Shown here: positions 1 through 41,317 of the stretch, one piece after another
Numbering within the stretch: position 1 is the first letter of the stretch
Layout: the number at the start of each line of letters is the position of its first letter
Assembly (NCBI GenBank): GCA_947574215.1
Contig: CANPIX010000002.1
Span: 4,490 to 68,489, forward strand
Length of the DNA stretch: 64,000 nt
Direction: 5' to 3'
Origin: an uncultured Mycoplasmatota bacterium
GTDB taxonomy: Bacteria; Bacillota_I; Bacilli_A; RF39; UBA660
Notes under the pieces: model-generated
The model's input: the letters and a program-made list of their open reading frames with translations, nothing else
What the model was told of the DNA's origin: nothing
The model's database searches: none
Translations under genes and position numbers: made by a program

Positions 1-1986
1 AGAAATACCTTGTAAATGGAATTTCAGCACCTGTTTTAACAACTGGCTTTTTAGCACTCATATCTTCTTCAAATTTTACTATTGCATCTGGAACATGTGG
101 CAATACTTCTTCACTCATATATTCATTAATATCTTTTTTATATTTAACTATTTCAGTATCTTTTGTAGTTTTATCAAGAATAATTTCGCCATTTTTATCT
201 CTATGTATTTCTGCAGTCTTATCCATTACAGATAAGCCATCTGCTATTTTGTCAATTAAATTTTTATTTACTTCTGTATTATCAAAGATATTTTTTAAAA
301 CATTAAGAAAATCTTTCTCATTTTTATAAATTTTATTACTTTTATTATTTTCTAAAATTTTAAAAATTAAATCATACGTATTTTTATTATTTAAGTATTT
401 ATCTAATTCTTTCTTCTCTTTATATGGAATTGGCTCTAACAATTGAATTTCATCAACTTTATCCTGATTATAAAATTTATCAAAAGTACCATTAGTTCTT
501 AATTGTTCAATTCTTTCATCATTTATAGAATAATTTCTTTGTAATGGTTGATAAACTGCATATTCTTTATACAAGAACTCCTCTTTATCGAATATTTTGC
601 TATATTTATTTTCTTTAAAATCTGCATATATCTTTACTATTTTTTCGATTTGTTTTAGAGATAATTCTTTCCTCTTTTTACCTAGTGAAGTTCTTAATTG
701 CGTCCAAAATTCTTTACCTGTTGCATTAATAAGTTGTATTTTATTTCTTCTTTCTGGTCTTTTAGTTGCTTCTTTAGAAAGAATAAATATATAAATACCA
801 ATACCAGTATTATAAAATAAATCAGTTGGTAATGCTATTATTGCTTCTATTAAATCTTGTTCTATCATCCATCTTCTTATTTGGCTTTCACCCGATGATG
901 TTCCACCAGAAAATAATGGTGATCCATTTGTAATAATAGCTGCTTTACCATTATTATCCAATTTAGAAATAGCATGTTGCATAAATAATAATTGCATATC
1001 TCCAGTAGCAGGCAATCCTGCTCCAAATCTTCCTTTAAAACCTAATTTATATTCATCTTTGACAGCTTCTTCTACACCTTCAGCAGCATCTTTCCCACCC
1101 CAAGGTTGTCCAAAAGGGGGATTCATGATAACAAACCTCATTTTTTGTTCTCGTTCATTTAATGTCGCTCTAAAACAGTCTTTAATCATTGTATCTTGAA
1201 ATTTAATATTATTAGCATTTTGACCTTTTATCATCATATCTGCCAAGCATATAGCATATGATTCAGGATTAACTTCTTGACCAAATAATTGAACATCTGC
1301 ATCTGGATTCATTTTCATAATTGTATCTCTTGCAGTGCTAAGCATTCCACCAGTACCACAAGCTGCATCTAATATAGTAATTGCTTTACCTGCTTCCATA
1401 AGATCATCACAACCTTCTGAAAGTAAAATATCTACCATCAACTTTATTACTTCTCTTGGAGTAAAATGATCACCAGCTTCAGCATTTTCTGAAAACCTTC
1501 TAATTATATCTTCAAAAATATATCCCATTTTATGATTATCAACAGTTTCAGGATTTAAATCTAAATTAGAAAATTCTTTAATAACACCTAATAATCTATT
1601 ATTTTTGTCCATTTTATCTATTTCTTTTTCAAATGATAAATTGTCAATAATTTCTTTAACATTTGGTGAAAAACCTTTTATATATGATTTAAAGTTATCA
1701 GCAATGTGATCAGCATCATTTAGTAATTCTTTTAAATCAAATTTACTAGTATTATAAAAAGAATAACCTGATTTTCTACACAACATTTTACATGGCGTTG
1801 TTTTATCGCTATTATATTCATCTAATACTGCTTTTTTAGTTTTAGCAAGTGCACACTCAAATCTTCTAATGATAACTATTGGTATTATTACATCTTTGTA
1901 TTTATCGCTTTTATATGGTCCTCTTAATTTATTTGCAATACTCCAAACTATATTTACCTCTTTTGTTACATTAATTGTATCATTCA
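1..1986 (-). CDS. hsdM: Type I restriction-modification DNA methyltransferase subunit HsdM (partial; 3' end runs off window start)
   Basis: Minus-strand ORF with ATG at 1986-1984, open to position 1. It is absent from the ORF track because the window edge truncates it. My translation shows an HsdM-type N-terminus (VWSIANKLRGPYKSDKYKDVIIPIVIIRRFE), SAM motif I LDAACGTGGML, DHFTPREV, catalytic motif IV IMNPPFG, IALPTDLF, and a C-terminal GAEIPFTRYF typical of Type I M subunits. Confidence 0.8.
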
Positions 1987-2204
1987 TCTTTTTTACCTCT
2001 CTTAACTACTGCTTGTTGCTTATTTTCATCAATTTTAATTTTGCAATCTTTTCGATTAGTCATTTTTACATCATTGTCTTCTAAATGAAATATAACCATA
2101 TCTCCTTCTTCTAGTTCCATTTTATCTCTAACAATTTTAGGAATGGTAATTTGTCCTTTTGAAGTTAATTTTGCATTTGCCAAAATTTCATTATCATTAT
2201 TCAT
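1980..2204 (-). CDS. AbrB/MazE (SpoVT_AbrB swapped-hairpin) family small DNA-binding protein. Possible antitoxin or R-M controller.
   Basis: 74 aa. The motif KGQITIPKIVRDKMELEEGDMV is a typical AbrB/MazE looped-hinge beta-barrel signature. Its stop overlaps the hsdM start (ATGAATGA, 8-nt overlap), implying translational coupling. Confidence 0.7.
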   Translation of the reverse strand: MNNDNEILANAKLTSKGQITIPKIVRDKMELEEGDMVIFHLEDNDVKMTNRKDCKIKIDENKQQAVVKRGKKDE

Positions 2205-2285
2205 AATTTTTTCCTTACTTTCCTTACTCTTAAGTATAGCATATTTTTAATTAAAGATAAATATCTGAACAAAAAAAGAAAGAAA

Positions 2286-3134
2286 TTAATCTTTCTTATC
2301 AAACAAATCTTTAACTATTAAATCCTGTGAATGTAAATTATTATTTTTACCTAATAATAAATTTTCATAAAATTTAACTAAATAGCTACTATTTTCTTTT
2401 ATTTTTAAATAGTTATTAAAGTAATTACTTCTGACTAAAGCGTTTCTAAAATATACTGATTTATCTTTAAATAAACTATTATCCACATTATAACCTAAAC
2501 TTATTAAATATTTTTCAATAAATAATGCTGTTGTTCTAGTATTACCTTCTCGAAAAGGATGCACTTGCCATATATTAGATGAAAATTTAGTTATATTGTT
2601 AATAACTTCAACTATATTCATTTCTTTATAGTTTTTTTCTTTTTCTAAAGATATATCATATTCTAATGATTGAGTTAATGTATTACAATCTCCATAAGCT
2701 ACTGAATCGTTATTTAAGATTTTTTCATGTTTAGAAAAATCAATTTTTCTAAATTCACCTGCAAATTCATAAACATCTTGAAATAAAAACTTATGAACAT
2801 ATTTTAAATAATCAACTGATAATTCAAAATTATCTTCATCTAATAATTCAACTATTCTAGCAGATACAAAATCACATTCTAATTCATTATGATTTATTTC
2901 ACTTTTATTTTCTTTTTCAATATAGTATTCTCTTAATTCTTTTTCTACTTCTTCTATAGTTAAATTGCCTTCTATGTTTTCTTCTAATAGTTTTTCTAAA
3001 TATTTAGAAGGTTTTAAATTATCTACTTCTTGAAGTCCAATAGCCATATCCCATTGTAATTGTTTTACATAGTTACTAAATTTATATTCTTCTTTATATT
3101 CATTAACACTTGAATCTAATTCTTTTTCGCTCAT
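2286..3134 (-). CDS. Fic/Doc family protein (Fic_N plus Fic core) with variant active-site motif HPFREGNTRTT
   Basis: 282 aa. The N-terminal region resembles Fic_N (LQEVDNLKPS...IEGNLTIEEV). The core motif HPFREGNTRTTALF matches the Fic consensus HPFx(D/E)GNGRxxR, with the second Gly replaced by Thr. Confidence 0.75.
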   Translation of the reverse strand: MSEKELDSSVNEYKEEYKFSNYVKQLQWDMAIGLQEVDNLKPSKYLEKLLEENIEGNLTIEEVEKELREYYIEKENKSEINHNELECDFVSARIVELLDEDNFELSVDYLKYVHKFLFQDVYEFAGEFRKIDFSKHEKILNNDSVAYGDCNTLTQSLEYDISLEKEKNYKEMNIVEVINNITKFSSNIWQVHPFREGNTRTTALFIEKYLISLGYNVDNSLFKDKSVYFRNALVRSNYFNNYLKIKENSSYLVKFYENLLLGKNNNLHSQDLIVKDLFDKKD

Positions 3135-3497
3135 AATTTATACCTCCTATTCACTTACAATTATAGCATATCTTAATATATTTTTTAATCTTTATATACT
3201 ACATTTTTACTCATTTTCATTTTTAATGTTTCAGTCCATCCAGAAAAGAGTAAAAAAATACAAAAACTCTTTTTTTAAGTCGATAAATAGGAAAAACCAA
3301 AGAAGTTACTAACAAAATAAAGTATAGATTATAAAATAATAAAGCAATGAAGTATGTAATAACAAAAAGTACTATTACATATATCAAAAAAAGTACTTAT
3401 AATTCTTTAACAACACTTTTAAATATTCAGTCTATTCCAAATATACAAAAACAAATAGAAACTATTCTATCTGCATTTTTTCGTATTTTTAATAAAT

Positions 3498-5219
3498 TTA
3501 AAGTTTATAATTAATATACATTAATTCCATACTATTATATAGCAAGTTTTGATAAATTTCTTTTAATAAATATTGGCAATACACTGATCTAGTGTCTATT
3601 TTTAAGTTTTCATTAAAACCTAAAACATATATTATTTTTTTATTTCTAAACATATCCTTAAACTCATTTTTAGAAATAATTCTTTTATCTTCTTCGTTTA
3701 ATTTATCATAATATTGTTCTAAAATATTAGGCTCATTATCCCTAGCTCTACTAATTATTGAAGATGAAGTAAATACTTGATTTTCTAAATCACGCATCCC
3801 TGGTCCATTAAATTCACTTTTATTACACATTAAATAAACCGAATCATCATCCCAAAAAATCAAGTCTGCTATTTCAACATTTTTAAAATTTTTTTTATGA
3901 GCAAAAATAACATCATCAGATTCTTTAAAGGTTTCATTGTAATCATCTTCACATTTTTCATTCTTTTTCAAATTAAACGTTTTTACAATGCTATCATCTT
4001 CGCTTAAAATTATATCGCAAATATCTTTGTATTGTTGATTTAACATAGCAAAATAAGAATCCTCAAAAACATACCATTCACCATTTAATAAATAATAACT
4101 ATCACTTTCAATTTCTAAACAACCACGTATTAATGTAATAATCTTTGTTTGTGGGATAATTGTGTGTCCATTATCATCTAGAGTTAATAAATAATTGGAA
4201 TTTAAAAAATTCTTTATAAAATTGATACTCTTTTTTTTCTTACATTGTTCTACCATTAAACTAATTAAATCATCAAAACTAATTGGTTCTTCTTTTTTCA
4301 TTATTATACTATCATTATTTTTTATGATAAATTTATCTGACGAGAAGTAAAATGTTTCAATATCATCAGCTATAACTTCAAATGTTTCTATATTATTATT
4401 CAAAATACAATCATATAACAAATTGTTCAAATCTGATTTTTTCTTTCTTTTTTTCTCAGCAGGTACAAAGTAATTTAGAATAAAGTTATCTTCTTTTTTT
4501 GAAAGTTCAGATAAAGTATTTAGTACATTTTCAAGTATTTCAATAGATATGCTTTTTCTTATAACAAAGGAATCTCCACTTGATACACCTATTAATTTTT
4601 TGCTCTCTTCTACTGGAATACCCAATTTAGGAGCAAGTTCATTAGATATTTGTATTGAAAGTTCCTTATATATGCTGCCAATGTTACTTTCAGCAACTAA
4701 ACTACTCATATTTTTTGTAACTCTTCTAGTTGTTAAATTATTTCCACTAGTATTATTTTCTACAATTCTTTTTAAAACTGGATTATTTTTTTGTATTAAT
4801 TTAGGCAATAAATATAATCCAAAATTTTTCTTAATAAATTTAGATATATAATTACTTCCATGTCCACCTGTCATAACATATATTTCATCAGCAACTATTT
4901 TAAAAATTATATATGAAGAACTATCATTAAATATCTTAAATATTGTTTCATTTTCTTCGGTCATTTCCATCAAATTTAATATCAACGACTTCCAAATTGG
5001 CTCTCTTCTACTTTTTATAAAAAATATATAATATCCATTTTTTTCGTTTTTCTTAACATGATCTCTGCCACCACTTTTATTTATATAACATTCTAAATAA
5101 AATAATAATTTGTCCAATAATTCCTCTGTGCTATTTGTTTCATCAACATTATCTAAATTATCTAATATCTGTTGTTTAGAAATTTTATAAATGCTAAATT
5201 GAATTTCCTCTTTGTCCAT
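3498..5219 (-). CDS. Hypothetical protein, 573 aa, of unknown function. Candidate defence-island gene.
   Basis: Long minus-strand ORF with AT-rich codon usage consistent with its neighbours. I see no Walker A, HTH or other recognisable catalytic motif. It lies directly upstream of fic, the abrB-like gene and hsdM on the same strand. Confidence 0.6.
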   Translation of the reverse strand: MDKEEIQFSIYKISKQQILDNLDNVDETNSTEELLDKLLFYLECYINKSGGRDHVKKNEKNGYYIFFIKSRREPIWKSLILNLMEMTEENETIFKIFNDSSSYIIFKIVADEIYVMTGGHGSNYISKFIKKNFGLYLLPKLIQKNNPVLKRIVENNTSGNNLTTRRVTKNMSSLVAESNIGSIYKELSIQISNELAPKLGIPVEESKKLIGVSSGDSFVIRKSISIEILENVLNTLSELSKKEDNFILNYFVPAEKKRKKKSDLNNLLYDCILNNNIETFEVIADDIETFYFSSDKFIIKNNDSIIMKKEEPISFDDLISLMVEQCKKKKSINFIKNFLNSNYLLTLDDNGHTIIPQTKIITLIRGCLEIESDSYYLLNGEWYVFEDSYFAMLNQQYKDICDIILSEDDSIVKTFNLKKNEKCEDDYNETFKESDDVIFAHKKNFKNVEIADLIFWDDDSVYLMCNKSEFNGPGMRDLENQVFTSSSIISRARDNEPNILEQYYDKLNEEDKRIISKNEFKDMFRNKKIIYVLGFNENLKIDTRSVYCQYLLKEIYQNLLYNSMELMYINYKL

Positions 5220-5463: not shown

Positions 5464-5745
5464 CTAAGTCTCTCCTCCTGCATTTATGTGATTAGATACT
5501 AAAATCACATCGCTTCCTTTTCCATAAAAACTTTGTGCCCTTCCAGGTCTCACATCAGGAGATAAAGTTTCATCAGTTGTTCTAGTCATACTGTTTTCAA
5601 TTCCTAAATCGTCCAAACGATTATGGATATATTCACTTATTTTTAATGTGTACTCTTTCTCAGTAATTCCATTTGCAATAGTTCCAGGATCTGTCCCACC
5701 ATGACCAGCATCCAAAACCACTTTTTTTGTTGCTCTTATAGACAT
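5464..5745 (-). pseudogene. N-acetylmuramoyl-L-alanine amidase (Amidase_3, CwlD-like) N-terminal remnant. Truncated after ~93 aa.
   Basis: Translation MSIRATKKVVLDAGHGGTDPGT...DVILVSNHINAGGET carries the Amidase_3 N-terminal motifs (DAGHGG, SNH.NA) but stops at roughly half the length of a functional domain. Its RBS, start and first codons are repeated at 7300-7375. Confidence 0.55.
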
Positions 5746-5790
5746 GTTTTTCACCTCTACTATAAAGTATGAAAAAAGCACAATTTTGTT
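5715..5790. repeat. Direct repeat copy A (~75 bp, ~85% identical to 7300-7375) covering the RBS and 5' end of the amidase remnant
   Basis: ccaaaaccactttttttgttgctcttatagacatgtttttcacctctactataaagtatga here versus ccgaaaccactttttttgttgatcttatagacatatttttcacctctactataagatatga at 7300-7375. Confidence 0.7.
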
Positions 5791-5966
5791 ATATTTATTT
5801 AAAATTTGAAAAAATATTTAATTTTAACGATTTCCGTTAATAAAATTAATAACACATTATTAATTCATAACCCCTTTATAAATGCTTTAATAAATTTTGT
5901 AGTTAACTATCTGCATCATAAAAAATCTGTTACAATTTAGTCGTATTTTCATAATTTTTTTACAAT

Positions 5967-6003
5967 TTAAAACCCTTAACATTTTTTCTACTAAGGGTTT
6001 TAA
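5967..6003. terminator. Perfect 12-bp stem-loop (ttaaaaccctta / taagggttttaa, 13-nt loop) in the intergenic region between the TNF-like gene B and the amidase remnant
   Basis: An inverted repeat seen directly in the sequence. It is followed on the plus strand by a T-rich tract (ttatatattattttt). It may act as a transcriptional terminator or insulator, possibly bidirectional. Confidence 0.4.
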
Positions 6004-6109
6004 TTATATATTATTTTTGATTAATTCTAGATAAACTTGCTTTTGTTTTTTTCTTATGTTATTAAGAACCCTATTTACAATAATTCTTTATTAATTTAAG
6101 TTATTGTTA

Positions 6110-6589
6110 TTAAACTTCTATTTTTTCTATTGTTAATACAAGTCCTTTCACTGTTGTATATTTTACTCCACCACTTGTAACCAGTTGAATTTGAACATTT
6201 TTTGCTTGATCTAATTTTATAGTTTTTGACATAGAAAATGTTAAATATTCCATATATTGGTTATTGTTATATAAATCTACGGAAATTAGAGTATTTCTAT
6301 CACCTGAATGAACATCTATTAATCGTAATAATAATTCTGAACTTATTCCATTTTGTGCCCATTGACCATTTAAATTAAATTCATATACTCCTGGTTCATC
6401 AATTAATACTTGATTACTACTTGCTGAAAAAATATTAGTATTCTGAGGAAATATATCACTTTGTTTAATTGTGAAAGTTCCAGACTTTCCATCATTATAT
6501 ATAACATTAATTGCTGCTTCTATACCACATGAGCCATAACAACCTTTGGGAACCACAAAATCTAGTTCATATTGCTCATTTGATTTCAT
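6110..6589 (-). CDS. Small C1q/TNF-like (BclA C-terminal-domain-like) protein, paralogue B
   Basis: 159 aa. The N-terminus YELDFVVPKGCYGSCG and the block EPGVYEFNLNGQ...LVLTIEKIEV resemble the paralogue at 6654-7112 and, by my recollection, the exosporium BclA C-terminal jelly-roll domain (ETGFYKIT...IIEKVA). Confidence 0.5.
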   Translation of the reverse strand: MKSNEQYELDFVVPKGCYGSCGIEAAINVIYNDGKSGTFTIKQSDIFPQNTNIFSASSNQVLIDEPGVYEFNLNGQWAQNGISSELLLRLIDVHSGDRNTLISVDLYNNNQYMEYLTFSMSKTIKLDQAKNVQIQLVTSGGVKYTTVKGLVLTIEKIEV

Positions 6590-6653
6590 TTTATCACCTA
6601 TAATAGATTATTCTATTTTACTAAAACTGATTGTATTGATGCACATTTTTATC

Positions 6654-7112
6654 TCATATTCTAATTTTTTTAATTGTAATATTTAACTGATTTGTAAAGG
6701 CCGTATCATTTGATGTAAGATACACTCGTAAACTTTTTATAGCGTCTATTTGTAAAATTTTTGTTTGTGAAAAAAACATTGTTGAAGATTGAAAAGCATT
6801 TGTTGTAAGTTCCACTGTTATAATATTTTCCATTACTGAAGTACCATAATCTATCATTTCTAAATATAAAGTGGCACTTTGAGCATTTTTTGATAATTTG
6901 CCACTCAAAGTAATTTCATAAAAACCTGTTTCATTTAATGCTATTTCATTATTTGCAATTGTAAAAATAGTTGTTGGATTAGGCAAAGTGTCATAACTAG
7001 TTATAGGCAACATTCCTTTTTGATTTTCTTGATAATTTGCAAATAAAATTGATTCTAAACCACAAGCTCCTTTTGGGATAACAAAATCTAGTTTATATTC
7101 ATCCAAATTCAT
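6654..7112 (-). CDS. Small C1q/TNF-like (BclA C-terminal-domain-like) protein, paralogue A
   Basis: 152 aa. YKLDFVIPKGACG, NETGFYEITLSGKL and a C-terminal ITIKKIRI. These blocks are shared with the 6110-6589 paralogue. Confidence 0.5.
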   Translation of the reverse strand: MNLDEYKLDFVIPKGACGLESILFANYQENQKGMLPITSYDTLPNPTTIFTIANNEIALNETGFYEITLSGKLSKNAQSATLYLEMIDYGTSVMENIITVELTTNAFQSSTMFFSQTKILQIDAIKSLRVYLTSNDTAFTNQLNITIKKIRI

Positions 7113-7299
7113 ATAATCACCTGTTAATATTTTATGAAATTTATTTTAATTTTGTATGGGACTTATACTATTTTTATTAAAAATTTTCATAATAAAAAAT
7201 ACTTTCCTATCGAAGTACCCTAATTCCTTGTATTTACTATTTCTTTATAACCATTTCTTTTATTTTTGAATTTAACAGATTTCTCGATGACTAGGCATC

Positions 7300-7375
7300 C
7301 GAAACCACTTTTTTTGTTGATCTTATAGACATATTTTTCACCTCTACTATAAGATATGATATTAACACAATTTAG
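7300..7375. repeat. Direct repeat copy B. A second copy of the amidase 5' end with RBS, ATG and 13 codons (MSIRSTKKVVSDA) then a stop.
   Basis: Reverse complement of 7293-7334 reads atgtctataagatcaacaaaaaaagtggtttcggatgcctag. This is ~85% identical to 5715-5790. Confidence 0.7.
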
Positions 7376-7432
7376 CAATTTTTACTTAAAGTTTTCCATT
7401 ATTAGCTAAAAAAATACAAATAAAAAACAGCT

Positions 7433-8524
7433 TTAACTCGCTGCTTTTGATAAATGAATTGTCGTTGTTTTAAGTTCACTACCGCGATAATAACTTATTT
7501 CAACTTTGTCTCCAACACTATGCTTATAAAGTTGATATTTCAAAAAAGCCAAACTCGTAATGTCTGCATCTCCAAGTTTTACAATAATATCTCTACTTTT
7601 TAACCCTGCTTTATCTGCAGGACTATCACTTTCTACTGTATCTATATACACTCCGCTCGTTACAGGAGCATCAACTCGAATTAAAATATCTGATAAATTA
7701 TACATAGAAACACCCAGATATGGTCTAGAAATACTTTCCCCCTTTTCAAATTTTTCTGCATACCACAATGCATCTTCAATTGGTATAGCAAAACCCATTC
7801 CTTCAATTTGACTGCTCGCAAGTTTCATAGACGTTATACCTATAACTTCACCATTTGAATTAGATAATGGTCCACCACTATTTCCAGAGTTAATTGCCGC
7901 GTCGGTTTGAATAACACTCATGACCCAATCACTAACATTATTATTTTTTAAACTCACCTCAACCATTCTATCTTTTCCAGATAAAATTCCTCTTGTAACA
8001 GTCCAAGAATAAGCACTGCTGTCGATTGGAGCCCCTACAGCAAACACAGTATCTCCAATTCTAGTTGCACTATTATTACCAAGTTGAGCAACACTTAAAA
8101 TATTTTTACTGTCCACTGTTAATACAGCAATATCTGCGTATTTGTCACTTCCAACAATTTTTGCCTCCACTGAACTATTATTAGTAAACACAACACGTAC
8201 GGCATCTCCACTTTCAATAACATGATTATTTGTTAAAATATAACCATTGCCATTTTCATTTTTATATACAAAACCTGTACCCGTAGCATACAATTTATCT
8301 TTTTTATAAGTTTCAATAGTTACTACTGAATCATAAACTTTCTCAACAGCGTCCGCTATGCCAGTTTCTGTTACGGTAACATCTTTAATGGTCTTAGTTA
8401 TATTTTCCGTTATATTCATTGGAGAATATTTAACTAAAGCAAACATGGAAAGAGATCCCAAAAAAAACACTCCCATTAAGACAACAACATATTTAACTAC
8501 TTTATTTATTTTATTTTCTTGCAT
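7433..8524 (-). CDS. htrA: HtrA/DegP-family trypsin-like serine protease with N-terminal TM anchor and C-terminal PDZ
   Basis: 363 aa. Catalytic triad contexts TNNHVIESG (His), DIAVLTV (Asp) and GNSGGPL (Ser). A hydrophobic N-terminal segment is present. Confidence 0.8.
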   Translation of the reverse strand: MQENKINKVVKYVVVLMGVFFLGSLSMFALVKYSPMNITENITKTIKDVTVTETGIADAVEKVYDSVVTIETYKKDKLYATGTGFVYKNENGNGYILTNNHVIESGDAVRVVFTNNSSVEAKIVGSDKYADIAVLTVDSKNILSVAQLGNNSATRIGDTVFAVGAPIDSSAYSWTVTRGILSGKDRMVEVSLKNNNVSDWVMSVIQTDAAINSGNSGGPLSNSNGEVIGITSMKLASSQIEGMGFAIPIEDALWYAEKFEKGESISRPYLGVSMYNLSDILIRVDAPVTSGVYIDTVESDSPADKAGLKSRDIIVKLGDADITSLAFLKYQLYKHSVGDKVEISYYRGSELKTTTIHLSKAAS

Positions 8525-8525
8525 T

Positions 8526-9455
8526 TCAATCTATCCTTTCTATTTCTAAATAATTAATGGGAAAACCCATTTTTTCTAAAACTTTTCCAATACTTATACT
8601 TTCTAATTTTCCATTTAATTTTTGTATTTCATAGTCAAGTTCTTTTATTAAAGAATGAAAATCATCTTTACGCAATAACTGCTTTAAAATAATAATTAAA
8701 GAAAATAAATCATCTTTACCATAAATATATTCCGATTCCAATTTAGGTATTTCTAATTTTTCATGAAATCTTGTATCATTAATTTTTCTTTGTACTCTGT
8801 GATCAAATAAAATTTCTTCATGAGCACACAAGTTTCGAAAATTAGCTAAAACGGGAAGATAAGTAGCCAAATCATTTGCATCTACCTTAAAAAACTCTGC
8901 AATGGCTTTCTGATCGCTTGGTTTCAAAATCAAAAAAAGTTCGCTAACAATCCCAAAAGACAAAACTTTCACGGCAATCCACAAAGGAATATATCCATAT
9001 CTTGAATTATAATGAGAAGTCGCTGTGTGACTATCAGCATTTGAACGAATCTGCCTTTTCATTTTATTAATCAAATCATTAATTTGCCTACGTTTCTCTG
9101 GGTGATTGTTAAAATTATTTGGATTTAAATAATCGTTTTCTTTAATACCATACGTTCTAGACAGATGGTACGAAATAAAACTTTTCAAATTATTTTCAAT
9201 AATCAGTAAATTTTTAAATAAAATATTTCGAACTTGACGATCAAAATTAAAAACGCCATACAATTGTCTAAAACTAGTTCCAGGAACAAAACTTTTATCT
9301 ATTAAAGATTTCATAAATAATGTTCGATATCCACTTATAAAGAAATAATTTTCACGTAGCAATATTTCTTTTGTCGCCGATACATCTTCAATAATCATCC
9401 CTTTGTTTTCTAAAATCAAAACCTGTTCATCTAAAGTTTTAAATATTTTATTCAC
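8526..9455 (-). CDS. Abi_2 family abortive-infection protein (AbiD/AbiF-like)
   Basis: 309 aa. The N-terminal pattern LDEQVLILENKGMIIEDVSATKEILLRENYFFISGY matches the Abi_2 (AbiD/AbiF) signature (..EQ..LL..RGL.I.D......L...NYYRLSGY). Its stop lies 1 nt from the htrA start. Confidence 0.75.
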   Translation of the reverse strand: MNKIFKTLDEQVLILENKGMIIEDVSATKEILLRENYFFISGYRTLFMKSLIDKSFVPGTSFRQLYGVFNFDRQVRNILFKNLLIIENNLKSFISYHLSRTYGIKENDYLNPNNFNNHPEKRRQINDLINKMKRQIRSNADSHTATSHYNSRYGYIPLWIAVKVLSFGIVSELFLILKPSDQKAIAEFFKVDANDLATYLPVLANFRNLCAHEEILFDHRVQRKINDTRFHEKLEIPKLESEYIYGKDDLFSLIIILKQLLRKDDFHSLIKELDYEIQKLNGKLESISIGKVLEKMGFPINYLEIERID

Positions 9456-9555: not shown

Positions 9556-10524
9556 ATGCCATTAATTACAACACACAATTATTTTGCTAACGACGTTTTT
9601 TCTAAAACAAATAGTAACATTACGAAAACATTTCAAGAGAAAAAAAATATTTATGAACTTTTTGCACAAGGAACCGATCCATTTATCTTTTATGAATGCT
9701 TTCGCCCTAAAAAATCAGATTATCAACATCTTTGCCATACACAAAACACAGATATTTTTTTTCTAAGATTTATAAAAAAAATAAAAGAGAAAAAATTAAC
9801 ACAAAATCCATTGGTACTTGCGTCTCTTTATGGACAGTTAACTCACTATATACTTGATAGTACCATCCATCCTTATGTTGTTTACAAAACGGGATTTTAT
9901 AACAAAAAAGATAAAAATACTCTAAAATACAACGGTCTTCACAACCAATTCGAATTACAACTAGATGCTTATCTGTATGAACAAAGAGAAAAGAAAGCTT
10001 TTAAAAAGTTTAAAATACACAAATATTTAATTGCAAAAGAAAAATGGGATATAGAACTTATAATTTTACTAAATGAAATTTATTATGAAGTATACAATAT
10101 AAAAAATGGTGGTACAAAATTACAAAAAGGCTGTCACATAATGTATAATTCTTATAAATATTTAATAGAAGATAAAATAGGTATTAAAAAGAAAATTTAT
10201 AAATTATTAGATAAAATGACTCCTAAAAAAGTAGGTGTATACGAAAACTTTAATTCACATGTTACCAAAATAGATCTTTCTATACTAAATCAAAATCACA
10301 AAATTTGGTACAATCCTTGGGATAATTCCATAAAAAGTAAAGAATCTTTTTTTGATTTATACAATAAAGCACTAGAAGATTGTATTCTTCTATTTGAAGC
10401 CACCCATAAATTTTTAAATGATCAAATCACCGAGAAAGCATATAAAGATATATTAAAAGATAAATCTTACTTAACTGGATTATCTTGGAAATTAAATAAA
10501 GAAATTAAATATTTAGAGTTTTAA
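9556..10524 (+). CDS. Hypothetical protein, possibly zinc-dependent phospholipase C-like
   Basis: 322 aa. The N-terminus MPLITTHNYFANDVF resembles the His-containing N-terminus of zinc-dependent PLC-family proteins. It is the only plus-strand gene in the left half and overlaps the cwlD 3' end convergently by 12 nt. Weak call. Confidence 0.35.
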   Translation: MPLITTHNYFANDVFSKTNSNITKTFQEKKNIYELFAQGTDPFIFYECFRPKKSDYQHLCHTQNTDIFFLRFIKKIKEKKLTQNPLVLASLYGQLTHYILDSTIHPYVVYKTGFYNKKDKNTLKYNGLHNQFELQLDAYLYEQREKKAFKKFKIHKYLIAKEKWDIELIILLNEIYYEVYNIKNGGTKLQKGCHIMYNSYKYLIEDKIGIKKKIYKLLDKMTPKKVGVYENFNSHVTKIDLSILNQNHKIWYNPWDNSIKSKESFFDLYNKALEDCILLFEATHKFLNDQITEKAYKDILKDKSYLTGLSWKLNKEIKYLEF

Positions 10525-11172
10525 ACTACCCATAGCCTCCGCGATAATTCGAGCTAACTTTTTTTGATAATCTTCTTTCACTAAAAGGGTTCTTTCGTGT
10601 GCATTAGACAAAAAGCCACACTCAATTAAAACACCTTCTACTTTTAATTCCTTATACATATAAGTAGAACTCGGTATTAATTTTATTTCTCTATTGGTTT
10701 TTAAAGATTTATTAAGTTCATTTTGAATATGTTCCGCAATAACTTTATTATTTTCTTTTTTCTTATTATAAAAAACTTGTGGTCCATAATAATTTGAATC
10801 ATCTAAGTAATTCAAATGGATTGACAAATAATAATTTGCACCACTATTATTAATCATTTTGATTCGATTATCAAAATCACTCTTCTTACGCCAAGAAGCA
10901 TTTGGCTTAGACAAATCATAATCTTCATTGCGAATTAATATGACACTTGCCCCAAGTTTAGTAAGTTCACTCTCTAATGCTTTAGAAATAGCAAGATTAA
11001 TATCTTTTTCATAAATAGTACCAGACATTGTACCTGGGTCTGCTCCACCATGTCCAACATCAACAACTATTAATTTTCCGGATAAAGGCAAACTAGCTAG
11101 CACAATTTTATTAGCAAAGCAGAGTATCATAACAACAAATAAAATACTAATTTTATAAAAATAACTTTTCAT
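10513..11172 (-). CDS. cwlD: Germination-specific N-acetylmuramoyl-L-alanine amidase CwlD
   Basis: 219 aa with a signal/TM N-terminus and Amidase_3 motifs (VVDVGHGGADPG, YLSIHLN). It lies downstream of rpsI as in B. subtilis (rplM-rpsI-...-cwlD). Confidence 0.8.
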   Translation of the reverse strand: MKSYFYKISILFVVMILCFANKIVLASLPLSGKLIVVDVGHGGADPGTMSGTIYEKDINLAISKALESELTKLGASVILIRNEDYDLSKPNASWRKKSDFDNRIKMINNSGANYYLSIHLNYLDDSNYYGPQVFYNKKKENNKVIAEHIQNELNKSLKTNREIKLIPSSTYMYKELKVEGVLIECGFLSNAHERTLLVKEDYQKKLARIIAEAMGSLKL

Positions 11173-20471: not shown

Positions 20472-21992
20472 CTATTTATCCATATCTATTCTTTGAAATA
20501 AAATTTCAGCTTCATTTAAGTCATACACAGCATTTTCATTAAATTTAAATGAAGTATCAGTCGAATGAATTTGACTTAAAATTCTTTCACTCGTTTCAGG
20601 TAAGAATGGACTTAAAAATACAGCACATACTCGAATCGCTTCTATTAAATTATAAAGTACGGTTTCAAGTCTTTCTTTTTTACTTTCTTCTTTAGCTAAC
20701 GTCCATGGTGTTGTTTCATCAATATATTTGTTACTTCTTCGTAATACTTCAAAAATTTCATCTATAGCAGATCCAATTTCTAAGTTGGTCATTTTATTAT
20801 CTATTTCACTTTCTAAAGCATTTATCATCGAAATAAGTTCATTATCCACAATTTCAATTACTTTTTTATTTTCTAAGTGACTATCAAAATATTTTTTTGC
20901 CATAGAAATGGTACGATTTACTAAATTCCCTAATATATTTACCAAATCTCCATTTATTCTCTCAATAAGTAAATCTTTAGTAAATACGCCATCACTTGCA
21001 AAAGGAATCTCGTGTAACACATAAAAACGTACTGCATCTACTCCAAATTCTTTCACTAAATCATCAGCATAGATAACATTTCCTTTTGACTTACTCATCT
21101 TTCCATCACTCATAATAAGCCAAGGATGTCCGAAAACTTGTTTTGGAAGAGGTAAATCCAAACTCATTAAAAAACAAGGCCAATAAATGGTATGAAAACG
21201 AATAATATCTTTACCAATCAAATGCAAGTCTGCTGGCCATAATTTATTAAATTCTTCACTTGAACCATCTGGGTCGTAACCTATATTGGTAATGTAATTT
21301 GTTAAAGCATCTAACCATACATAAACCACATGTTGTGGATTTTCTACTACAGGAATTCCCCAATCAAATGAAGTTCTAGAAACACATAAATCTTGTAAAC
21401 CAGGTTTTAAAAAATTATTAATCATTTCATTTTTTCGAGAAGCTGGTTGAATAAATTCTGGATGCGATTCAATATAGTCCATTAACTTTTCTTGATATTT
21501 ACTTAATTTAAAAAAATAAGATTCTTCACTTTTCAACTCTACTTCTCTTCCACAATCTGGACACTTTCCATCTACAAGTTGATTTTCAGTCCAAAAAGAT
21601 TCACAAGGAGTACAATAAAGTCCCTTGTATTCTCCTAAATAAATATCTCCTTTATCCAACATTTTTTTAAATATTTTTTGAACAATTTTCTCATGATGTT
21701 CGTCAGTCGTTCGAACAAATTTATCATAACTAGTATTCATAATATCCCAAATACTTTTAATTTCACTAGCTATCTCATCCACAAATTCTTTTGGTGTTAT
21801 ATTTTCTTCTTTCGCTTTAATTTGGATTTTTTCCCCATGCTCATCGGTTCCAGTTTGAAAATAAACTAAAAAACCTTTCAATCTTTTGTAACGAGCAATT
21901 GCATCTGCTAAAACGATCTCATAAGTATTTCCTATATGAGGTTTTCCTGATGTATATGCAATGGCTGTTGATATATAATACTTTTCTTTCAT
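20472..21992 (-). CDS. metG: Methionine--tRNA ligase (short form without C-terminal tRNA-binding domain)
   Basis: 506 aa. HIGN motif (GKPHIGNTYE), KMSKS motif (GKMSKSKGN) and a zinc knuckle (CPDCGREV). Confidence 0.9.
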   Translation of the reverse strand: MKEKYYISTAIAYTSGKPHIGNTYEIVLADAIARYKRLKGFLVYFQTGTDEHGEKIQIKAKEENITPKEFVDEIASEIKSIWDIMNTSYDKFVRTTDEHHEKIVQKIFKKMLDKGDIYLGEYKGLYCTPCESFWTENQLVDGKCPDCGREVELKSEESYFFKLSKYQEKLMDYIESHPEFIQPASRKNEMINNFLKPGLQDLCVSRTSFDWGIPVVENPQHVVYVWLDALTNYITNIGYDPDGSSEEFNKLWPADLHLIGKDIIRFHTIYWPCFLMSLDLPLPKQVFGHPWLIMSDGKMSKSKGNVIYADDLVKEFGVDAVRFYVLHEIPFASDGVFTKDLLIERINGDLVNILGNLVNRTISMAKKYFDSHLENKKVIEIVDNELISMINALESEIDNKMTNLEIGSAIDEIFEVLRRSNKYIDETTPWTLAKEESKKERLETVLYNLIEAIRVCAVFLSPFLPETSERILSQIHSTDTSFKFNENAVYDLNEAEILFQRIDMDK

Positions 21993-22019: not shown

Positions 22020-22270
22020 TATTTATCCATGATTTTTTTCTAAAACAAAAAAATCACAAATTAAGGGCGAAAAATTTTCCGCGGTACCACCTTAATTCAT
22101 GATTTTAATCATGCACTCTAATTCGTAACGAGAATGAATCGATTTAACTCCAGAACCATGTTCATACTCTTATTTAGATTTACTCGCACCAAATGTAAAT
22201 TCTCTTTGCTAAACAATAAGTACTACTCTTTCCTTCTTTATTAATTGCTTTTATCTTAGCATAGAATTTT
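22020..22270 (-). promoter_or_regulatory. T-box riboswitch leader upstream of metG
   Basis: Plus-strand ccgcggtaccaccttaatt (22079-22097) is the reverse complement of the conserved T-box sequence AATTAAGGTGGTACCGCGG. On the minus strand it is followed by a stem plus U-run (terminator/antiterminator) before the metG RBS. Confidence 0.7.
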
Positions 22271-32320: not shown

Positions 32321-32342
32321 TCTTTTAAACATCCACCTAAAT

Positions 32343-32419
32343 AAAAAAGTGCACACGAACAGAGACTGATGTGGCTGCTATCTTCCGATCCTGACCAGAT
32401 TACAATATATTCGTTGCAC
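32343..32419 (-). ncRNA. ffs: Signal recognition particle RNA (small 4.5S-type, helix 8 / domain IV only)
   Basis: The minus strand reads gugcaacgaauauauuguaaucuGGUCAGGaucGGAAgauAGCAGCCacaucagucucuguucgugugcac followed by uuuuuu. It contains the conserved domain-IV motifs GGUCAGG...GGAA...AGCAGCC around a GNRA-type tetraloop. The ends pair (gugcaacgaa/uucgugugcac). A TTGAAA-17-TATTAT promoter sits at 32454-32426. Confidence 0.7.
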
Positions 32420-32493
32420 AAATAAATAATAACAATTTTTCTTTTATATTTCAAGAAGTTCCACGTGAAACATAGTTTATTTACACTTTCTTA

Positions 32494-38692: not shown

Positions 38693-39811
38693 TTAGTAAG
38701 TTTTAATTGGTAGAATAAGTTGAATTAAAGATTCATCACTGATTGATTTTATTACAATTGGTTTTACATCATCAGTCATTAATAACAAGATTTCCTCTTC
38801 TTTAATAGTTTTTAAAGCCTCTAACATATACTTTGAACTAAAAGAAATATCTATAGCAGAACTTGTATCTGTATCTACGATAAGTTTTTCTTCTACTTTT
38901 CCAATTTCTGAAGCATAGGAATTAATCGTAATCACTTTATTCTCTAATTTCATTTTTATAATATTTTTATCTTTTCCTTGAGTAAGTAATGCAGCTCTAT
39001 CTACACTAGCAGAATACTCATCTTTATTAACTTTTACTATAATGCCGTACTCTGTAGGAATTAAATTGGAAGTGTTGGGATAAGTTCCTGATAAAAGATT
39101 GGTTTGAAATTTTATATTTTTATATTTAAATAATACTTTATTATTGAAAATATGCATTTCTACTTCCTCTTCGTCCGTAATTATTTTTTCCAATTCAATA
39201 ATATTTTTTCCTGGTATAACAATATTCACGTCCGTAGATATAGGACTATCTAATTTAACATTTTTCTTGGCCAATCGATAAGAATCTGTTGCAATAAATA
39301 GAAGCTCATCTCCAATAATTGAAACATTTACCCCAGTTAATAAAGGACGAAGTTCTTGATTGGATATGGCAAAAACCGTTTGATTAATTAAAGATTTTAA
39401 TACATCCCCTTTTAAAAGAATTGGATCCTTATGTTCTTCTAACTTTAAATTAGGATAATCATTTGCGTCTAAACAATTTAAGTTAAATTGAGCATTTTCT
39501 GTATAAATTCTTATTTTTAAACGATCAATTACTTCAAAATTAATTGTGTCACTAGGTAGTTTTCTAACTATATCTAATAAAAATTTACTTTGAATAATTA
39601 TTGTTCCTGTTGTCCCTATATTTTGAATTTCTTTTTCTTCAATATAAGAGGTAATGGTAAGTTCACTATCACTCGCGGTTAGAAAAAGTCCTTTATTCGT
39701 TAATTCAAATTTAATTCCATTTAAAACTGGAATAACATTTTTTGTAGATACCCCTTTTATTACATTGTTTAAGTTTTCTAATAAAATAGTTTTCGAAATT
39801 GTAAATTTCAT
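38693..39811 (-). CDS. dnaN: DNA polymerase III beta sliding clamp
   Basis: MKFTISKTILLENLNNVIKGVS is a typical DnaN N-terminus, and the protein has three-domain length. The likely start is 39811. The ORF track extends it to 39838. Confidence 0.9.
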   Translation of the reverse strand: MKFTISKTILLENLNNVIKGVSTKNVIPVLNGIKFELTNKGLFLTASDSELTITSYIEEKEIQNIGTTGTIIIQSKFLLDIVRKLPSDTINFEVIDRLKIRIYTENAQFNLNCLDANDYPNLKLEEHKDPILLKGDVLKSLINQTVFAISNQELRPLLTGVNVSIIGDELLFIATDSYRLAKKNVKLDSPISTDVNIVIPGKNIIELEKIITDEEEVEMHIFNNKVLFKYKNIKFQTNLLSGTYPNTSNLIPTEYGIIVKVNKDEYSASVDRAALLTQGKDKNIIKMKLENKVITINSYASEIGKVEEKLIVDTDTSSAIDISFSSKYMLEALKTIKEEEILLLMTDDVKPIVIKSISDESLIQLILPIKTY

Positions 39812-39854
39812 TTGTTTTTCCTTCTTTCTTTTTTTCAATTTTTTTATTTTTATT

Positions 39855-39961: not shown

Positions 39962-41317
39962 TTAAAATTTACTTTTTATTTCATTAATTTCCAACTCCAA
40001 TTGTTTATTGTTCTTTAAATCTTCTGTAATTTTATCACATCCATGAATCACAGTAGAATGATCTCTTCCACCAAATTCAAGACCGATTCGAGAAACGGTT
40101 TCATCGGTAAGCATTCTAGATAAATACATTCCAATTTGCCGCGAATAAGCAATTTTAGCACTTCGTTTTTTCCCTTTTAAATCTTCAATAGTAATGTGAT
40201 AATAATCCGCTACCGCTTTTTGAATGTTTTCTATAGAACTATCAGAGTAAATATTCACATTTAAATAATCTTTGAGCGCCTCATTTGCAAATTCTAAGTC
40301 AATTCGATCGGGAACAATCATCGCTGTATACGCCATAAGTCGATTTAAGGTCCCTTCTAAAAATCGCACATCGTTTTGACAACTATTAGCAATAAACTGG
40401 ATTACATTTTCATCAATTTTATCCTCTATACTCTTGCCCTTTAGTTTTTCTTTAATTATACGTACTCTAAGTTCAAAATCTGGAGGATCAATATTAACTG
40501 GAAGTCCCCACATAAAGCGACTTCTTAAACGTTCTTCTATCTTTTTTAAATCATCAGGGCTTCTATCCGAGCTAATAATAATTTGTTTGTTTGCTTGATG
40601 AAGTGCATTAAAGGTGTAAAAGAATTCCTCTTGTGTTTTGTCTGCCCCCACTAGATATTGAATGTCATCTATAATTAAGACATCAACATTCCGATATTTA
40701 TTTTTAAAATTATTTGAATAATCAATGGCATTTTTTCCTTTTTCCATTCCTGCAATACCAATGTATTCATTCATAAACATGTCACTTGTTGTGTATAAAA
40801 CTTTTTTATTTGTCGTTTCGGTAATAAAATTCCCGATGGCATGCATTAAATGAGTTTTACCAAGTCCACTTTTTCCATAGATAAATAATGGATTGTGAAT
40901 TTTCCCAGGTTGTTCTGCAACAGCCATTCCCGCTACTTTAGCAAAACGGTTTGTGTTTCCAACTATATAATTATCAAAATTTAAAGATTTATCTAAATTA
41001 TTTTCCCATAAATCATCTACTTTAGTAGTTTCAAAGTTTGATGTTTCCATCTCTTTAATTATTTTTTGTTGTTCTTCTTCTAAAACAAATTTAATATTGT
41101 AAGTAATTCCTGATAAATTAAATAGAATTTCTTCCATTAAAGAATAATAATTATCCCCTAATATTTTTTTGTGGATTTCCATAGGAACTTGTATTGTCAA
41201 GGAATCATTTTCCACAAGAATTAATTTTAAATCATTAAACCAAGCATTATAAGAAGCAGAATTGATCTCATTTTTTACATTACTTAAAAAAGTAGTCCAT
41301 AATTCTTCAACTAGCAA
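39962..41317 (-). CDS. dnaA: Chromosomal replication initiator protein DnaA
   Basis: 451 aa. AAA+ motifs (NPLFIYGKSGLGKTHLMHAIGN, LIIDDIQYL) and a C-terminal DNA-binding domain (AKIAYSRQIGMYLSRMLT). Confidence 0.95.
   Translation of the reverse strand: MLVEELWTTFLSNVKNEINSASYNAWFNDLKLILVENDSLTIQVPMEIHKKILGDNYYSLMEEILFNLSGITYNIKFVLEEEQQKIIKEMETSNFETTKVDDLWENNLDKSLNFDNYIVGNTNRFAKVAGMAVAEQPGKIHNPLFIYGKSGLGKTHLMHAIGNFITETTNKKVLYTTSDMFMNEYIGIAGMEKGKNAIDYSNNFKNKYRNVDVLIIDDIQYLVGADKTQEEFFYTFNALHQANKQIIISSDRSPDDLKKIEERLRSRFMWGLPVNIDPPDFELRVRIIKEKLKGKSIEDKIDENVIQFIANSCQNDVRFLEGTLNRLMAYTAMIVPDRIDLEFANEALKDYLNVNIYSDSSIENIQKAVADYYHITIEDLKGKKRSAKIAYSRQIGMYLSRMLTDETVSRIGLEFGGRDHSTVIHGCDKITEDLKNNKQLELEINEIKSKF

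Follow-up and report, generated by a model that had tools for sequence, protein, structure and literature searches.

Two adjacent genes on a 64-kb stretch of the chromosome of an uncultured Mycoplasmatota bacterium (contig CANPIX010000002.1; the whole 64-kb stretch that was analyzed is referred to as the window) encode small paralogous proteins that are homologous, at the level of sequence profiles, to the C-terminal domain of the exosporium protein BclA. BclA-type proteins determine spore adhesion, immune recognition and spread, in pathogens and gut commensals alike; to our knowledge, what is known of them stems almost entirely from work on the Bacillus cereus group and C. difficile. The upstream gene (A) and the downstream gene (B) carry one or two cysteine-containing triplets where their relatives carry a collagen-like stalk. 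We hold, with moderate confidence, that A and B are made in the mother cell and assemble into almost stalk-less, BclA-family trimers on the spore surface, anchored by a conserved N-terminal head and by cysteines, and encoded on a mobile cassette.

Both genes are read from the minus strand (coordinates are collected in Table 1), each is preceded by an AGGTGA ribosome-binding site, and the spacer between them is 64 nucleotides (nt) long. The two proteins, whose N-termini read MNLDEYKLDFVIPKG and MKSNEQYELDFVVPKG, align over their full length with 32% identity (BLASTP, E=4e-28) – a paralogy far beyond chance. An earlier note on this DNA had described them as tandem paralogs of about 155 amino acids (aa), and both open reading frames (ORFs) are where it placed them. 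All the motifs that it quoted are present: A reads YKLDFVIPKGACG ... NETGFYEITLSG ... LNITIKKIRI, and B reads YELDFVVPKGCYG ... DEPGVYEFNLNG ... LVLTIEKIEV. Among orthologs from three host contexts the ratio of nonsynonymous to synonymous substitution rates (dN/dS) is 0.21-0.28 for A and 0.27-0.37 for B, which means that both copies are kept by purifying selection. Neither sequence has a visible export signal peptide, LPXTG motif or wall-binding motif.

The connection to BclA became apparent only by way of an intermediate. Compared with the PDB by sequence, A, B and a joint A/B profile returned nothing but noise, and a profile of 36 family members (A3) gave only a marginal match to OX40L (E=0.043). 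The Pfam hidden Markov model (HMM) for the domain in question (BclA_C, PF18573) scores A at 13.5 bits (E=0.069) against a gathering cutoff of 38, does not match B, and matches just 5 of the 36 family members at E<=0.1; other sub-threshold Pfam and NCBIfam matches of A and B are to DUF7308 and, spuriously, to FabF. A search with A3 did, however, retrieve many proteins of ~160 aa that bear a precomputed PF18573 label (E=1e-17 to 1e-10). When the profile of this labeled group (A5) was aligned with A3 using hhalign, the two matched at 99.4% (E=6.3e-22) over 152 columns, that is, over the full length and with the head motif included. The significant PDB matches of A5 are all to exosporium proteins: ExsFA (6.6e-6), BclA (1wck; 1.9e-5), BxpB (5.2e-5) and ExsF (3.3e-4). 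Given that the direct searches were noise or marginal, the link to BclA required A5; with it, A and B are, at profile level, homologs of bona fide BclA_C members. The idea of a stand-alone domain of the BclA C-terminal, C1q/TNF-like type, put forward in the earlier note, is thereby borne out, and the BclA residues quoted there are correct: the 1wck alignment contains '...ISETGFYKIT...' and '...SASIIIEKV'.

Structure prediction, carried out for A and B as monomers, points in the same direction. The AlphaFold2 model of A is an all-beta sandwich (predicted local distance difference test (pLDDT) 77.7; predicted template modeling score (pTM) 0.76), and that of B, built from a deeper alignment (pLDDT 85.3), comprises a confident jelly roll at residues 23-157 and a low-confidence stretch of 20 N-terminal residues. 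The predicted fold is the ten-strand jelly-roll beta-sandwich of the TNF/C1q superfamily. A Foldseek comparison of the A model with the PDB, a check suggested with the original idea, matched TNF-family ligands together with two cyanophage fiber tips (E about 1e-6); the matches in BFVD are collagen-like fiber tips of phages and giant viruses. Because this fold is frequent at such tips, the fold alone leaves function unsettled. From the fold, and from the presence in relatives of collagen (an obligate trimer) directly N-terminal of the domain, we infer that A and B would trimerize.

The family to which A and B belong was defined by an exhaustive HMMER search with an A+B profile, which yielded 78 cluster representatives at E<=1e-3. 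(A word-indexed search for homologs of single sequences gave only relatives of at least 84% identity; a search for related loci with alignment A1 gave mainly the same species and three weak matches.) Nearly all 78 representatives share one architecture: a few N-terminal residues, a head with the motif Y-x-[LI]-[DN]-F-x-[IL]-P-x-G, a run of glycine-X-Y (GXY) triplets, and a jelly roll that ends ...L-I-I-K-K-[LIF]. The number of triplets is 0-8 in forms of 150-175 aa and rises to 28 in longer forms. At the position of the collagen A reads PKG-ACG and B reads PKG-CYG-SCG, and the sole insertion or deletion that separates A from B in the head-stalk region is exactly one triplet. The occurrence of triplet remnants in A and B at the position where relatives carry (GXY)n leads us to conclude that the stalk is vestigial, not simply absent. 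The earlier claim that the collagen-like region is missing thus holds in so far as there is no functional stalk – neither A nor B matches Pfam Collagen or has the long collagen-like GXY region that is canonical for BclA – but one or two XYG triplets with cysteine are left. These triplets contain every cysteine of the two proteins (C17 in A; C17 and C21 in B), and the shared Cys-Gly (C17-G18) is invariant across A and B orthologs. The Bacillus exosporium leader (TIGR03720, LIGPTLPPIPP-type) is missing, as had been stated: no NCBIfam match was found for it at E<=10, and a different conserved head stands in its place.

Family members are arranged in tandem pairs in distant lineages as well (L022, L029), and this recurrence suggests that two-component assemblies are favored, either as heterotrimers or as stacked trimers. 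An ancient split into A-type and B-type proteins, common to all tandem pairs, was considered and ruled out: a neighbor-joining tree indicates lineage-specific duplications.

Set beside the domain that tips the nap filaments of Bacillus anthracis and B. cereus (BclA; PF18573; PDB 1wck/3twi), A and B have in common with it the strand motif E-T/P-G-F/V-Y-E/K-I, the C-terminal strand ...I-I/E-K-K/V and the absence of a signal peptide; in addition, a candidate promoter of sigma-K type, similar to the promoters of bclA genes, precedes A. There are also differences. BclA has dozens of triplets (40 are quoted; PMC12357932), whereas A and B have one or two, with cysteine; BclA has the Bacillus exosporium leader, whereas A and B have the Y-x-LDF-x-IP-x-G head; and A and B, unlike BclA, score below the Pfam threshold and come from a mobile cassette on which their paralogous genes lie in tandem.

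In architecture A and B resemble the basal-layer trimers BxpB/ExsFA and ExsFB (PDB 8d02, 7r1m, 9h3d). BxpB is a stand-alone trimeric jelly roll of 167 aa that is similar to the C-terminal domain of BclA; its only two cysteines lie within the disordered residues 1-19, its paralog ExsFB has a single N-terminal cysteine, and these cysteines are proposed to form disulfide links to a Cys-rich ExsY/CotY scaffold (PMC10470788). Like these proteins A and B are stand-alone, stalk-less and short (about 155-167 aa), and possess a jelly roll with a disordered or low-confidence N-terminus of ~20 residues that holds the only cysteines; like them they are paralogs with two cysteines (B) and one (A). The TNF fold and the exclusively N-terminal cysteines amount to an architectural resemblance and not to proof of orthology. 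The sequence relation to BxpB/ExsFA is indirect (A5 profile to ExsFA, E=6.6e-6), BxpB is without the head motif, and A and B are in tandem, an arrangement that is not described for BxpB and ExsFB (PMC10470788).

A third point of reference is provided by Bacillus endospore appendages, where a short N-terminal peptide docks trimer onto trimer (F-BclA on F-ENA; PMC12357932; PDB 9h38); the idea is the same as that which we propose for the head. The leader of F-Anchor ends ...PPIYIPTG before the collagen (PMC12357932) and resembles ...DFVIPKG of A; more broadly, the last residues of the head (F-V-I-P-K-G) resemble the ExsF-contacting ends of the BclA (...PFTLPTG) and F-Anchor (...PIYIPTG) leaders. 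The head is nonetheless distinct from both the Bacillus exosporium leader and the F-ENA hook signature. The N-termini of A and B do not match the F-BclA signature M-P-psi-psi-$-P-psi, no DUF4183 receiver of the F-ENA kind occurs among the genes in or near the cassette, and the collagen stalk, about 700 residues long in F-BclA, is vestigial in A and B. With signature and receiver both absent, membership of the F-ENA hook system was ruled out.

Evidence that A and B are transcribed in the mother cell, good but indirect, is provided by a promoter-like element. The window contains the sporulation genes yabG, yabP, yabQ and spoVG and a cwlD-like amidase gene, and the earlier note had advised a search for a sigma-K or sigma-E promoter upstream of the pair. 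Such a candidate is present: a sigma-K-type element upstream of A is conserved in all three host contexts, and ~190 nt upstream of A travel with the cassette. In C. difficile the sigma-K consensus is AC at -35 and CATATAAT at -10, and bclA1-3 and a YabG-like protease are under sigma-K control (PMC3789822); in B. thuringiensis bclA (CAC-N16-CATATGTTA), bclB, bxpB and other exosporium genes are sigma-K-dependent (PMC4750369). All seven independent operons of the family have CATAnnnT[A/G] at 24-60 nt upstream of the start codon, although the strict form, CATAnnnTA, is found in five and the T[A/G] relaxation was picked after seeing the data. The background is 4-7% per locus in shuffled upstream regions and 10% of 144 control ORFs. 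The window has 79 ORFs that encode 80 aa or more, and of these A alone has the full AC-N16/17-CATAnnnTA in promoter position; the promoter geometry of yabG is the same as that of A, and the -10 box alone also stands upstream of yabG and spoVG. A promoter scan detected no sigma-70-type site upstream of A.

A terminator scan found no terminator-like site in the A-B spacer, so the two genes probably form a single operon. The htrA-like gene upstream has a terminator of its own, which makes A-B a separate transcription unit, and the terminator-like hairpin that follows B is at the same time the downstream end of the mobile cassette. A smaller hairpin lies upstream of the promoter; across three unrelated host contexts the arms of its stem and its T-run are conserved while its loop varies, and from its sequence it may be an insulating terminator, an operator or other regulator, or a recombinase site. 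A similar element recurs in mobile-element repeats of L002 (5781-5853, 7679-7751).

The cassette, comprising the small hairpin, promoter, A, B and terminator, is 88-91% identical to its counterparts in L009, L013 and L016; for the backbone genes, identity is only 65-72% or no alignment can be made. This discrepancy shows that the cassette has moved laterally. Three neighborhoods were found: cwlD-PLPC-AbiD-HtrA-A-B in the window, cwlD-AbiD-HtrA-DUF1848-helicase-A-B in L009, and pheS-pheT-A-B-yqfC-yqfD in L013 and L016. Neighbors differ in each, and only A+B with their own promoter are conserved. Rep/FtsK elements come after the cassette in L009 and L001, with a serine recombinase in L009, and a single-copy relative (P0087) adjoins a serine recombinase. 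A decayed, frameshifted Mob_Pre relaxase gene is located directly downstream of the cassette in L013 (5357-5902) and L016 (10148-10450); the remnant matches the intact protein of L002 (tblastn, E=1e-37). In the window the cassette is bracketed by ~100-nt direct repeats, each of which, read on the minus strand, holds a ribosome-binding site with the opening ~13 codons of an amidase gene (MSIR[A/S]TKKVV...), and the point at which strains of the same species begin to differ is exactly the outer end of the right copy. The bracketing repeats and the strain divergence suggest an att-like hotspot where mobile elements accumulate in tandem.

The earlier note had placed the pair in a defense island. 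The defense-type neighbors are real: AbiD (PADLOC, 7e-58), a Fic-type candidate (PDC-S72, 1e-80) and, without a PADLOC match, a DUF6119 protein (Pfam, 6.8e-26). A functional tie to them is not apparent. Since the neighbors are not conserved, A and B match no PADLOC model, and the same cassette is found elsewhere between pheST and yqfCD, we regard the defense-island context as incidental.

How might A and B work? Late in sporulation, a sigma-K-type (possibly sigma-E-type) promoter would drive the A-B operon in the mother cell. The products, having no export signal, would reach the forming spore straight from the mother-cell cytoplasm. Each would fold as a TNF/C1q-type jelly roll and trimerize, yielding homotrimers or A/B heterotrimers, and the N-terminal extension – the head strand with one or two Cys-containing triplet remnants – would hold the trimers on the outer spore layer: the head by docking onto a partner, the sole cysteines by forming cross-links with a Cys-rich layer in the way put forward for BxpB and ExsFB. 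The outcome would be a low layer of knobs and not a hairy nap. The operon is an accessory trait whose 1.3-kb cassette passes from species to species along with small mobilizable elements. In support of this account, one host context puts the cassette beside yqfC and yqfD.

Several observations weigh against it. The window contains no gene for a docking partner, for a collagen-like protein or for a Cys-rich layer, and the Pfam BclA_C model falls short of its threshold for A and misses B altogether. Besides the relaxation of the -10 motif noted above, AC is at -35 in only three of the seven loci; the -10 element contains the generic sigma-A TAnnnT and is present before dnaA and a penicillin-binding protein gene in the window; and were the CATAAAATA box in use, the leader would be only about 8-12 nt long (the iunH sigma-K promoter has a leader of only 10 nt; PMC4750369). 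The evidence for the fold consists of predicted models, fiber tips of phages and giant viruses commonly have the same fold, and the long relatives match tail-fiber PHROGs. Finally, carriage by mobile elements is also compatible with functions unconnected with spores.

It is also conceivable that A and B are the receivers and not the docking party: basal anchors of the BxpB/ExsF kind, the inter-subunit clefts of which take up the N-terminal heads of collagen-like filament proteins encoded elsewhere. As stand-alone, stalk-less TNF-fold proteins of about 155 aa they are like BxpB (167 aa), A5 matches ExsFA slightly better than BclA, and a paralog pair with two and one N-terminal-only cysteines is exactly what BxpB and ExsFB present. 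However, A and B retain the head that precedes the stalk in relatives and so look like proteins that dock, and no filament gene is nearby in the window; we think this alternative unlikely, though within the spore model it is the principal one. A different origin altogether is implied if A and B are a phage-derived fiber tip kept by a mobile element, be it as a remnant that binds receptors, as a decoy or as a factor in superinfection exclusion. Collagen-like phage tail fibers (phrog_5073, phrog_4120; cyanophage A-1(L)/A4, 8ke9, 9k09) have the same C1q/TNF-like tip fold as A and B, in line with the Foldseek and BFVD matches described above. Phage minor tail proteins have collagen repeats and a ...GxTxTGxxGTxASVTNxGTxxxAxLDFxIPxG module in common with long family members; among the tail-fiber PHROGs that the latter match, phrog_5073 extends into the C-terminal domain, and A itself weakly matches phrog_746 (minor tail protein, E=0.008). 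The cassette is, moreover, tied to mobile elements and has AbiD and Fic neighbors. What distinguishes A, B and the short relatives from phage fibers is that they have neither a detectable match in phage genomes nor phage neighbors. A tblastn search with A, P0020 and the C-terminal domain of a long relative found no match in 50,697 phage genomes (INPHARED), IMG/VR holds no close relatives, plasmid sequences likewise gave no match, and the seven distinct gene contexts inspected contain no phage structural genes or prophage; neither location in a tail module nor phage sequence relatives, the marks of a phage tail fiber, were thus found for A and B. The associated elements are of relaxase or serine-recombinase type and not prophages, and the export signal that a cell-surface decoy would need is lacking. 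The phage-tip and decoy options raised in the earlier note consequently find no support.

The mobile element could, alternatively, put A and B to use in vegetative cells, for example as a cytoplasmic sensor or effector partner in defense against phages, or as an adhesin by which transfer is helped. In the window the pair has AbiD-HtrA on one side and DUF6119/Fic on the other; it comes after a DUF1848 protein and a helicase in L009, and is cargo beside Mob_Pre or serine-recombinase elements, all of which would suit such a role; the failure of both proteins to match any PADLOC model, the change of neighbors from one context to the next around a conserved A+B and promoter, the lack of a detectable sigma-70-type promoter upstream of A, and sequence links that all lead to exosporium proteins do not. 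Because there are no phage relatives or phage contexts and no export signal, both the phage-derived and the vegetative explanation appear to us improbable.

The head merits separate consideration. In long relatives it is the second half of a repeated module (e.g., ...VGTTTTGAPGTNASVTNTGTESNAVLNFVIPAG in P0068 and P0057), and in fused relatives ...IGTVTTGAPGTNASVTN-xGTxxxA-x-LDFxIPxG forms one uninterrupted stretch that recurs between collagen segments. This tail+head module, which is common to the long relatives and phage minor tail proteins, has no Pfam model, and a search with P0057 for a solved structure of it returned nothing meaningful. In the operons of L031 and L034 the module is split: the products of upstream genes terminate in ...IGTVTTGAPGTNASVTI(NPV)*, and that of the gene which follows begins with M..GY.LNFVIPQG. 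Judged from these sequences, the division of the module between genes suggests head-to-tail docking between separate trimers. The operons themselves (L031 5499-6483, L034 4871-6519) consist of two or three genes; the upstream products are collagen-like and have the C-terminal tail ...IGTVTTGAPGTNASVTI, the head motif being present, among them, only in the second gene of each operon, and the product of the last gene combines a head with a short collagen stretch and a BclA_C domain. Between samples the middle gene differs in collagen length (85, 100 and 134 aa in L031, L032 and L033, respectively).

These arrangements prompt a tentative proposal, which we regard as doubtful: the head may represent half of a joining module that is split, by which spore (or fiber) filaments are clicked together head-to-tail from several separate trimers, with A and B as minimal, stalk-less caps. 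By the same proposal, and with no greater confidence, A and B might dock on a tail-bearing partner or on each other, with the two cysteines of B cross-linking it to the spore and A stacked on top of B. A search of the 64-kb window revealed no gene for a tail-bearing or collagen-like partner. If the proposal is true, the split module would allow a modular, laterally exchangeable re-tipping of the spore surface.

Table 1. Features of the A-B cassette and its borders (positions in the window).
Feature	Position	Strand	Details
Gene A	6654..7112	minus	152 aa, upstream gene; head, one vestigial triplet, TNF/C1q-like jelly roll ending LNITIKKIRI
Gene B	6110..6589	minus	159 aa, downstream paralog of A; two vestigial triplets, jelly roll ending LVLTIEKIEV
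Head and triplet remnant of A	7059..7097	minus	residues 6-18: head YKLDFVIPKG + vestigial triplet ACG; motif search; relatives carry (GXY)n there
Head and triplet remnants of B	6524..6571	minus	residues 7-22: head YELDFVVPKG + vestigial triplets CYG-SCG; motif search, alignment
Ribosome-binding site of A	7117..7122	minus	AGGTGA; direct sequence reading
Candidate sigma-K-type promoter	7128..7155	minus	AC-N17-CATAAAATA; -10 box 7128-7136, 15 nt before ATG of A
Overlapping sigma-E-like -10 box	7151-7158	minus	CATACAAA; further upstream of A
Small hairpin + T-run	7194..7220	minus	GGGTACTTCGATAGGAAAGTATTTTTT; ~85-110 nt upstream of A, upstream of promoter
Terminator-like hairpin after B	5967..6003	minus	12-bp perfect stem; inverted repeat; RNA fold z-score -3.28; conserved in L009, L013
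Terminator of upstream htrA-like gene	7423..7448	minus	terminator scan
Laterally mobile cassette	5946..7280	minus	1.3 kb; hairpin, promoter, A, B, terminator
Left ~100-nt direct repeat	7295..7394		85% identity to right copy; also in L001, L002; ribosome-binding site + ~13 amidase codons, then stop
Right ~100-nt direct repeat	5708..5807		runs into truncated Amidase_3 ORF (5464-5781)

The surroundings of the cassette yielded further observations. An AbiD-family gene (8526-9455) directly abuts the gene for the HtrA-like Trypsin_2+PDZ protease (7433-8524, minus strand), and the two are also adjacent, beside cwlD, in the diverged genome L009. Downstream of the cassette, positions 1980-5219 (minus) encode the 573-aa DUF6119 protein, the Fic protein and, next downstream of Fic, a 74-aa ORF; in strains of the same species (L001, L002, L004) this block is swapped for other mobile elements. 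The truncated Amidase_3 ORF (5464-5781, minus) covers only positions 1-78 of the 174 in the profile. That it is a duplicated piece of cwlD was ruled out: it is 35% identical to the intact cwlD-like gene (10513-11172) and is a separate, disrupted gene.

The host genome has a GC-content of 27%, and the window is origin-proximal chromosome with dnaA (39962-41317, minus), dnaN (38693-39838, minus), mfd and pth. The replication origin lies within the window at ~38.7-43 kb, and gene orientation and GC skew both switch sign near 41-42 kb. Two RNA features were also found: a T-box leader (22060-22247, minus; 117.8 bits) upstream of a 506-aa ORF (20472-21992), and a small signal recognition particle RNA gene (32333-32430, minus; 57.4 bits). 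The closest reference metagenome-assembled genome (L017, CANPIH010000073.1) is labeled 'uncultured Tenericutes bacterium'; given the sporulation genes in the window, this name probably mislabels a low-GC, spore-forming lineage of Bacillota.

Together these data extend the BclA family, below current Pfam thresholds, into uncultured low-GC gut spore-formers. They add a minimal form in which the collagen stalk is cut to one or two Cys-bearing triplets and the architecture converges on that of the BxpB/ExsF anchors. The family-wide head, distinct from the Bacillus exosporium leader, may serve for docking in general, and it offers a candidate tag for spore-surface display. A spore-surface trait may, moreover, pass between species as a self-contained 1.3-kb cassette that consists of a promoter and two genes.

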